This document shows, piece after piece, positions 1 through 720 of a DNA stretch of 720 nucleotides (positions are counted from its first letter, which is position 1; each line of letters begins with the position of its first letter). The DNA comes from Escherichia coli (GTDB taxonomy: Bacteria; Pseudomonadota; Gammaproteobacteria; Enterobacterales; Enterobacteriaceae), in NCBI RefSeq assembly GCF_003334765.1, contig NZ_QOWT01000104.1; one strand, 5' to 3'. The notes under the pieces were generated by a model. The model had not been told where the DNA came from and did not search any database. It worked only from the letters and a program-made list of their open reading frames with translations. The position numbers and the translations under genes were made by a program.

Positions 1-363
1 CTCCAGTGACCGGTACCATGTATCACGGGCCTGTGCATCCATTAAGGAAAGCATCCCTGAACGTTGCATCAGGTCACGCCAGATTTCGCGATCGAGATTG
101 CGTGTGATGGCTTTCATTGCGGTTTCCGGTTTCTCCATCAGCCAGCAGCCGCAGCGAAAATCCTGTTTCATGGCCCAGTCCGGGGCGGCTTTACCGCCAA
201 TACTTTCTGTCATTGCTGATATTTCAGCCAGTTGCCGGATAAGTGTGTCGATTTGCAGCAGTGTACTCTTTCGTACAGCCAGAATGTGGCGGATACTGGT
301 TGAGCAGATAACGTCCGTATGCCCGGTGACCACTTCCGGACGGGAGATTGTGATGTCTGACAT
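1..363 (-). CDS. hypothetical protein, N-terminal 121 codons (3' end truncated by window left edge)
   Basis: Same minus frame has no stop codon anywhere from 447 down to 1. First ATG after the upstream stop is at 363..361, preceded by AAAAGGGAAACCGATA (AGGG about 9 nt upstream). Translation begins MSDITISRPEVVTGHTDVICSTSIRHILAVRKSTLLQIDTLIRQLAEISAMTESIGGKAAPDWAMKQDF... with balanced, protein-like composition. Not listed in the ORF track because it has no in-window stop. Confidence 0.6.
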   Translation of the reverse strand, partial: MSDITISRPEVVTGHTDVICSTSIRHILAVRKSTLLQIDTLIRQLAEISAMTESIGGKAAPDWAMKQDFRCGCWLMEKPETAMKAITRNLDREIWRDLMQRSGMLSLMDAQARDTWYRSLE

Positions 364-372
364 TATCGGTTT

Positions 373-377
373 CCCTT
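373..377 (-). promoter_or_regulatory. Shine-Dalgarno (ribosome-binding site) for the downstream minus-strand CDS
   Basis: Minus-strand sequence AAAAGGGAAACCGATAATG; the AGGG core sits about 9 nt upstream of ATG 363..361. Confidence 0.5.
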
Positions 378-384
378 TTGGTTT

Positions 385-419
385 ATAAACGAAAACGCCA
401 GCCCTGTTCAGGCTGACGT
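385..419 (-). terminator. candidate Rho-independent terminator after the upstream minus-strand CDS
   Basis: Minus-strand RNA ACGUCAGCC[UGAACAG]GGCUGGCGU forms a 9-bp stem (one G-U wobble, 6 G-C pairs) with a 7-nt loop, followed directly by UUUCGUUUAU. It begins 28 nt after the TAA stop at 450..448. The plus-strand equivalent has a C-A mismatch and no T-tract, so the signal is strand-specific. Hand-folded; no energy computed. Confidence 0.4.
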
Positions 420-447
420 CAGTGGAATGAAGTATGGTGAGTGATAT

Positions 448-720
448 TTACCGGTTCTGGTGCAGAAGCTGCAGATGACGAAGAGTACGGACATCCTCCC
501 GGGCCTGTTCGATACAGGGCAACAGTGCTACCGAATCCGTTTTATCCTCATCGTTGTCAAAGATAATTCCCGATTCGCAGTCGATATTGTCCTGCAGCCA
601 CGCAATGAGGATATCCAGCGCTGTTTCAGTGGTTAATGGCATCACGCTCTGTATCACTGTATTGTCTTCCGGCAACTGATGAGGGCTGGCAGAAGTCGCC
701 GGTGTTTCGGTAGCGTCACG
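448..720 (-). CDS. hypothetical protein, C-terminal part (5' end probably beyond window right edge); Pro/Ser/Thr-rich segment followed by a strongly acidic ~64-aa tail
   Basis: Minus-strand frame with codons at plus positions 1 mod 3 is open from the window edge at 720 to TAA at 450..448. The track's TTG start at 675..673 is not a boundary: the frame continues upstream as ...RDATETPATSASPHQLPEDNTV.... Composition is protein-like and CTG/GAA/CCG-rich codon usage is typical of Enterobacteriaceae. Internal ATG at 642..640 has only a weak Shine-Dalgarno, so the true start is probably outside the window. Confidence 0.55.
   Translation of the reverse strand, partial: RDATETPATSASPHQLPEDNTVIQSVMPLTTETALDILIAWLQDNIDCESGIIFDNDEDKTDSVALLPCIEQAREDVRTLRHLQLLHQNR

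Follow-up and report, generated by a model that had tools for sequence, protein, structure and literature searches.

A long open frame opposite an island-borne DUF4942 gene of Escherichia coli is very probably a non-coding shadow

Introduction

Long antisense open frames within bacterial genes, known as shadow open reading frames (ORFs), are a general phenomenon (Mir et al., 2012; PMC3454372); they were also treated by Merino et al. (1994) and Silke (1997), as cited in PMC3454372. The closest described systems of the opposite kind are the antisense overlapping genes of E. coli O157:H7, which are reported (PMC9927249) to have RNA-seq and Ribo-seq signals as well as promoter, Shine-Dalgarno and terminator elements.

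Here we analyze a 720-nucleotide stretch of E. coli DNA (contig NZ_QOWT01000104.1 of assembly GCF_003334765.1; hereafter the window, with position 1 as its first letter) in which two long open frames overlap on opposite strands. A first-pass annotation had proposed that coding in the left two-thirds of the window is probably on the minus strand and that the plus-strand ORF listed there is an antisense shadow. Annotation, conservation and substitution pattern all support this proposal: very probably, the minus strand carries the 5′ part of a gene for a DUF4942 protein and the plus frame is a non-coding by-product of that gene. The minus strand, moreover, codes across the whole window and not in its left two-thirds alone.

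Results

The DUF4942 gene and the opposite frame

Both strands of the window are open over long distances, as the first-pass annotation had stated. On the plus strand, frame 2 is open from 2 to 385 and closes at a TAA (386-388), giving an antisense open frame at 2..388 that we judge to be non-coding; on the minus strand, an open frame runs from 447 to 1, bounded upstream by the TAA (450..448) of a gene for a DUF957 domain-containing protein and continuing for 160 codons more past the left edge. Positions 1..363 (minus) hold the first 121 codons of a DUF4942 coding sequence (CDS; RefSeq WP_001280493.1; Pfam PF13708) that runs on to window position -479. The whole CDS (window -479..363, equal to 5521-6363 of locus L001) encodes a protein of 280 amino acids and has an intact start, Shine-Dalgarno sequence and stop. 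Its ATG (361..363, minus) is the start in all RefSeq copies inspected, and an alignment of 12 sequences, Citrobacter and Klebsiella copies among them, shows no variation in it. Reading the sequence in front of this ATG, we found the Shine-Dalgarno motif that the first pass had claimed, an AAGGGA at 372..377 (minus), with 9 nucleotides from its last G to the ATG. The string AAAAGG(G/A)A is kept upstream of the ATG in 10 aligned E. coli copies, and the Citrobacter and Klebsiella copies have AAGGAAA instead, some bases closer to the ATG. Translation would start at the ATG (363..361) behind the AAGGGA (377..372) as a putative ribosome-binding site.

The listed plus-strand ORF specifies 96 amino acids from a TTG at position 98 and has an in-frame ATG at 107. 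Seen in genome context, the frame occupies window -124..388 (169 codons), with 161 amino acids from the first TTG. No good Shine-Dalgarno sequence could be read before TTG 98 or ATG 107, in agreement with the first pass, and a promoter scan gave no plus-strand promoter-like site upstream of the ORF. The contrast in composition between the two translations is also real: Ser, Arg, Cys and Ile together account for 46% of the plus translation versus 29% of the minus translation, and Asp, Glu and Lys for 7% versus 17%.

Gene calling with flanking sequence and comparison of both translations at the protein level, two checks that the first-pass annotation had proposed, both bear out the minus strand. 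In every inspected copy, RefSeq, annotated by the Prokaryotic Genome Annotation Pipeline (PGAP), has a minus-strand DUF4942 CDS only, from ATG 363, and no plus-strand gene. A tblastn search of plasmids with the minus product matched 4,352 records from more than 50 genera (Klebsiella, Escherichia, Salmonella, Enterobacter and others), of which 4,320 lie below 60% identity and the lowest, on a Sphingobium plasmid, at 24%; the plus product matched 34 records only, those in which the DNA is still similar. The plus product belongs to no family in Pfam, PHROG, PADLOC or NCBIfam, the last giving only a sub-threshold chance match, and in three versions (96, 93 and 161 amino acids) it is absent from about 15 billion predicted proteins, though the DNA has been sequenced in hundreds of genomes. 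Conserved homologues of the plus product, named in the first pass as the finding that would speak against its proposal, were looked for in these searches and none was found.

Substitution pattern and frame persistence

We analyzed substitutions in a set consisting of the window and 11 E. coli paralogues (88-96% DNA identity). The ratio of nonsynonymous to synonymous polymorphism (pN/pS) was 0.20 in the minus frame, 0.36 in the plus frame, and 1.1-1.7 in the other four frames. The low value of the plus frame follows from its wobble positions, which it shares with the minus gene. By coordinate, 51 variable sites fall at 1 mod 3, as compared to 28 and 21 elsewhere; we rejected this third-position periodicity as a strand discriminator because sites at 1 mod 3 are third codon positions whichever of the two frames is read. 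What does discriminate is the set of variants silent in just one of them: 17 are silent in the minus frame and 6 in the plus frame, with 74 and 90 possible changes, respectively (binomial P = 0.005). Judged by this split and by the two pN/pS values, we found no purifying selection on the plus frame beyond the constraint from the sense gene, which is the property by which an overlapping gene was to be recognized.

Even among these close paralogues the plus frame is not always preserved. It contains a stop in 2 of the 11, namely L009, in which the minus gene is intact, and L004; TTG 98 is lost in four (Leu to Phe), and the in-frame ATG 107 is kept in all. The minus ORF is intact in 10 of the 11 and in all five annotated diverged homologues, which come from Citrobacter (66% protein identity), an E. 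coli plasmid (58%), and IncK (38%), IncL/M (33%) and IncHI1B (32%) plasmids. Two DUF4942 paralogues look like pseudogenes, L004 with its internal stop and L015, which is unannotated. Each of the five diverged homologues, with its sense ORF intact and annotated, has the corresponding antisense frame closed by stops that fall between sense codons 1 and 121. The plus frame is thus interrupted in every examined homologue at or below 66% protein identity and has no independent homologue, as a shadow should be. Other antisense frames in the same five homologues are open for up to 201 codons, which indicates that antisense frames come and go freely.

Expected length of the plus frame

Stops in the plus frame can arise only from a Tyr codon after a pyrimidine-ending codon, or from a His or Gln codon after a T-ending codon, read in complement. 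The first 121 residues of the DUF4942 protein contain one Tyr, two His and five Gln; the plus frame is therefore long because the N-terminal half of the protein offers few stop-generating codon pairs. A different explanation, that the shadow lies in the codon-aligned antisense frame, which is open wherever TTA, CTA and TCA are avoided, proved wrong: the gene contains these codons 10 times, and the frame stays open over 72 codons only.

To ask how long a frame the protein itself would produce, we held its sequence fixed and redrew synonymous codons, either from a K-12 usage table or by a shuffle within the gene. The longest open run in the plus frame averaged 116 codons under K-12 usage, for which the table is approximate, and 128 codons under the shuffle, which is independent of that table. 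The observed in-CDS run of 161 codons was reached in 7% and 20% of trials, respectively, and so the length of the plus frame lies within what the sense protein sequence and codon usage put out (P 0.07-0.20). As a control, we examined the 39 complete CDSs of an arbitrary 50-kilobase core region of the same genome. An antisense run of at least 129 codons was present in some frame of 23 of the 39; in the same relative frame as the plus ORF, runs of at least 129 codons occurred in four and runs of at least 161 codons in three. Two long overlapping open frames are, in short, no more than chance gives. The plus open frame would arise as a by-product, its wobble positions coinciding with those of the DUF4942 gene.

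The DUF4942 family

The minus product is a member of a large family along its whole length. Residues 87-275 match Pfam PF13708 (E 5.5e-66) at model positions 1-189 of 190, and three PHROG families are matched as well, among them phrog_38825 (residues 28-279) and phrog_6263, labeled 'DNA methyltransferase'. Homology searches returned 2,433 proteins in one database and 2,112 representatives of 50%-identity clusters in another; many of these representatives align from about residue 13-20 to about residue 279 at 30-56% identity, so that homology spans the whole protein, the N-terminal part encoded in the window included. An alignment of 81 sequences has S20, R30, D90, W94, L97, G102 and M107 conserved, all within the window-encoded part. 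With its full-length Pfam match and its place in the length class of about 260-290 amino acids, the protein is a typical DUF4942 member; names for such proteins were taken from AFDB matches. NCBIfam had no match for this or the other minus-strand product, and PADLOC had none for any product.

An AlphaFold2 (AF2) model computed from the 81-sequence alignment was confident (predicted local distance difference test, pLDDT, 89.7; predicted template modeling score, pTM, 0.81) and consists of long helices followed by an alpha/beta subdomain. The model had no significant fold match in the PDB, and searching PDB sequences gave no match either, whether the query was the protein or the 81-sequence profile. 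In the literature searched, 'DUF4942' appears in four papers, as incidental mentions to judge by their titles and a single occurrence in each, 'PF13708' was not found, and the function of DUF4942 is not addressed there.

Some relatives of about 460-560 amino acids carry a methyltransferase domain C-terminal to DUF4942 (P0203; A2SNG5). In P0203, a protein of 468 amino acids, this is a separate MTS methyltransferase domain at 305-411. The window's protein differs from these relatives in having no such domain: Pfam finds DUF4942 alone in its 280 amino acids, and we did not class it as a DNA methyltransferase. The name 'restriction methylase' on some records is therefore unjustified for it. DUF4942 may be a stand-alone version of an accessory module that stands N-terminal to the methyltransferase domain in related proteins.

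Among the 4,352 plasmid records with a DUF4942 homologue, 3,997 are conjugative. The plasmid copies have antirestriction, JAB/RadC-like, Hha and relaxase genes in their vicinity, and the chromosomal island has similar neighbors. Taking together the MTS-fused relative, the phrog_6263 match, the predominance of conjugative plasmids, and the antirestriction, JAB/RadC-like and relaxase neighbors, we put forward as a tentative possibility, and one we would not favor strongly, that DUF4942 acts as a stand-alone accessory module in an establishment or anti-restriction gene set common to conjugative plasmids and these islands.

The hairpin between DUF957 and DUF4942

The first-pass annotation had also placed an upstream gene and a terminator on the minus strand, and both are there: the gene lies at 645..448, and a pattern scan detected an intrinsic-terminator-like hairpin at 385..420 (minus; stem-loop 420..394, T-rich tail 393..385). 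The hairpin has eleven pairs, six of them G-C, and a loop of 5, and is followed by TTTTCGTTT, a T-run that is present on the minus strand only. Its folding free energy is -18.1 kcal/mol (z -3.4), and none of 200 shuffled sequences was as stable. With a G+C-rich stem-loop and an immediate T-run on the transcribed strand, it is a predicted intrinsic terminator. Twelve copies, drawn from three genera (E. coli, Citrobacter and Klebsiella), all share the stem CCAGCC/GGCTGGCG and the TTT but differ in the loop. The invariance of the stem, although the flanking proteins are only about 66% identical, suggests that the hairpin is functionally maintained, be it as an attenuator, a terminator or an RNA-stability element. 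Its probable effect is to terminate or attenuate transcription that comes in from DUF957. An Rfam scan of the window found nothing.

Past the DUF4942 stop there is a second terminator-like site, and the T-runs of both flanking hairpins are on the minus strand. A promoter-like match at 389..362 (minus) was considered as the DUF4942 promoter and rejected, since its -10 element lies over the start codon. Two details of sequence concern the same intergenic region. The stem in the window has a G-U pair where every other copy has G-C. Paralogues L007 and L010 have a 12-nucleotide insertion shortly after the DUF957 stop, at a place that corresponds to window ~435-447; it looks like a tandem duplication of TCACTCA(C/T)C.

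Neighboring genes and island context

Upstream of the hairpin, positions 448..645 (minus; TAA 450..448) encode the DUF957 domain-containing protein of 65 amino acids (RefSeq WP_085949090.1). The exact 65-amino-acid protein belongs to a cluster of 1,689 members and occurs on about 1,000 contigs. The rest of the window (646..720, minus) is open in frame with DUF957 and consists of a linker and, from 673, a truncated DUF5983 (YeeW-like) remnant, which RefSeq treats as a pseudogene. In genome context, remnant and DUF957 form one ORF of 140 amino acids (L001 6448-6870) that begins at the original DUF5983 ATG, overlapping the cbtA stop, and matches Pfam DUF5983_N (E 1.2e-27); its DUF957 part has no Pfam-A match even at E ≤ 10, DUF5983_N being the only family reported, and no NCBIfam match. 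By alignment with the C41(DE3) copy, DUF5983 has suffered an internal deletion of ~275 nucleotides. RefSeq splits the 140-amino-acid ORF into a pseudogene and the 65-amino-acid CDS. A fusion protein of the DUF5983 N-domain and DUF957 is possible in this island variant, which is also found in L008.

Many E. coli chromosomes (e.g. NZ_CP025903.1) contain the window at 100% identity. A related copy is present in 4,898 of 5,426 complete E. coli genomes, with a median of 3 places per genome having any match; the E. coli copies number 7,653, and 429 records match at 99% identity or more, the identical window occurring in hundreds of genomes. In NZ_CP025903.1 the window lies inside a degraded CbtA/CbeA (CP4-44-like) integrated island beside dcuS and IS1; O104:H4 C227-11 is an example of a strain with this island. 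The island genes, all on the minus strand, are a GTPase, an Ag43 fragment, an antirestriction fragment, a JAB/RadC-like gene, DUF987, a YeeU-family antitoxin, cbtA, the DUF5983 pseudogene, DUF957 and DUF4942, so that this chromosome contains the CbtA/CbeA island block antirestriction - JAB/RadC-like - DUF987 - cbeA - cbtA - DUF5983 - DUF957 - DUF4942 on one strand. The tail end of the block recurs in 11 further E. coli loci and in Citrobacter and Klebsiella plasmids; the order cbtA - DUF5983 - DUF957 - DUF4942 is the same in the window and in the E. coli, Citrobacter and Klebsiella copies. DUF4942 would accordingly be read as the last gene of a cbeA-cbtA-DUF5983-DUF957-DUF4942 block in a CP4-44-like island.

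The ends of the island vary. In L001 (3862-5191), the distal end borders, next to dcuS, on IS1A, a truncated fragment of a cadC-like regulator and a fragment of an integrase, which indicates that the boundary has been rearranged in this strain; elsewhere the island ends at a tRNA gene (tRNA-Ser or tRNA-Ile) or beside an intact integrase. In L016 (E. coli plasmid pMTY18781-2, the copy at 58% identity), the DUF4942 gene directly follows cbtA, without DUF5983 and DUF957. A DUF6088 gene stands just downstream of DUF4942 in both L016 and L012.

Discussion

Our analysis establishes which strand of this window codes, how the two frames are conserved, and what is statistically to be expected of a shadow frame. 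We are highly confident that the minus strand holds the 5′ part of a DUF4942 gene and that the plus frame is a non-coding shadow. Three considerations weigh on the other side. The plus frame is open in 9 of the 11 E. coli paralogues with a pN/pS below 1, both of which are, however, to be expected where wobble positions are shared and the DNA is 88-96% identical. That the minus gene is translated and the plus frame silent is read from the evolution of the sequence alone. Finally, efficient termination at the hairpin would oblige the DUF4942 gene to have a promoter of its own, a need that the sole promoter-like match (389..362) cannot fill.

One challenge to a silent plus strand is that both strands code, in which case the plus ORF (from TTG 98 or ATG 107 to the TAA at 388, or in its 161-amino-acid version) might be a very young, Escherichia-restricted, translated antisense gene. 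There is precedent for this in the antisense overlapping genes with Ribo-seq support that have been reported in enterohaemorrhagic E. coli (PMC9927249), and Mir et al. (PMC3454372) argue that long ORFs in non-aligned antisense frames exceed the codon-usage expectation; here, too, 169 codons are open, the frame persists in nine paralogues, and ATG 107 is retained in every one. Yet the length is within expectation once the sense protein is fixed (P 0.07-0.20) and is matched in the same relative frame by 3-4 of 39 control genes, and stops interrupt the frame in L009, L004 and all five diverged homologues. The discordant variants favor the minus frame 17:6, the plus product, with its 46% Ser, Arg, Cys and Ile, matches no family and was never reported by a gene caller, and the ORF has neither an upstream plus-strand promoter-like site nor a good Shine-Dalgarno sequence before either start. 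We consider a second, plus-strand gene very improbable. Coding by the plus strand alone, with the minus frame as the shadow, has in its favor just the existence of the 96-amino-acid ORF (161 in context), and its likelihood is negligible: it is refuted by the Pfam match that makes the minus product a full-length member of a large conserved family, by 4,352 as against 34 plasmid records, and by a minus ORF that persists in homologues with as little as 32% identity, where the plus frame is interrupted. The annotation is unanimously for the minus strand, for which the terminator T-runs are oriented as well.

A separate question is whether either strand is functional at all, given that this DUF4942 copy could be a pseudogene undergoing decay, part of a cryptic element that is itself degraded. 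The island is indeed degraded, with a DUF5983 pseudogene that has a deletion, truncated Ag43 and antirestriction genes, and an integrase fragment, and some DUF4942 paralogues are pseudogenes (the internal stop of L004; the unannotated L015). Against decay of the present copy stand its full length of 280 amino acids with start, Shine-Dalgarno sequence and stop all in place, the identical window in hundreds of genomes (429 records at 99% identity or more), and a paralogue pN/pS of 0.20, which implies continuing purifying selection. We regard loss of function as quite unlikely, and retain a functional minus-strand DUF4942 gene with a shadow opposite its 5′ part as the preferred reading.

This result already matches the public annotation, and the case is an ordinary one: standard annotation is right here, and the antisense ORF of 96 amino acids (161 in context) should stay out of gene lists. 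It does provide a worked example of a pitfall, in that a shadow sharing wobble positions with its sense gene inherits low pN/pS and third-position periodicity, and these signals alone cannot separate the strands. What separated them was conservation among diverged homologues, together with the variants silent in a single frame. The sole mildly interesting residue is DUF4942 itself, which is very widespread on mobile elements; its fold is predicted with confidence, but it has neither a solved relative nor an assigned function.

Compared with the described systems, the plus frame resembles the antisense overlapping genes of E. coli O157:H7 (PMC9927249) in being a long antisense ORF within an annotated gene of a horizontally acquired region. 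It differs from them in that no elements of the kind found there were detected, in its interruption in paralogues and homologues, and in being known here from sequence alone. Unlike the longest shadows of E. coli, which the codon-aligned antisense frame gives (control median 129 codons), it occupies the wobble-sharing frame, which is somewhat less often as long (3-4 of 39 control genes). In its essentials, however, it is like the shadow ORFs: it lies inside a gene of the opposite strand, owes its openness to the codons of the sense gene, and is lost once the sense protein diverges.
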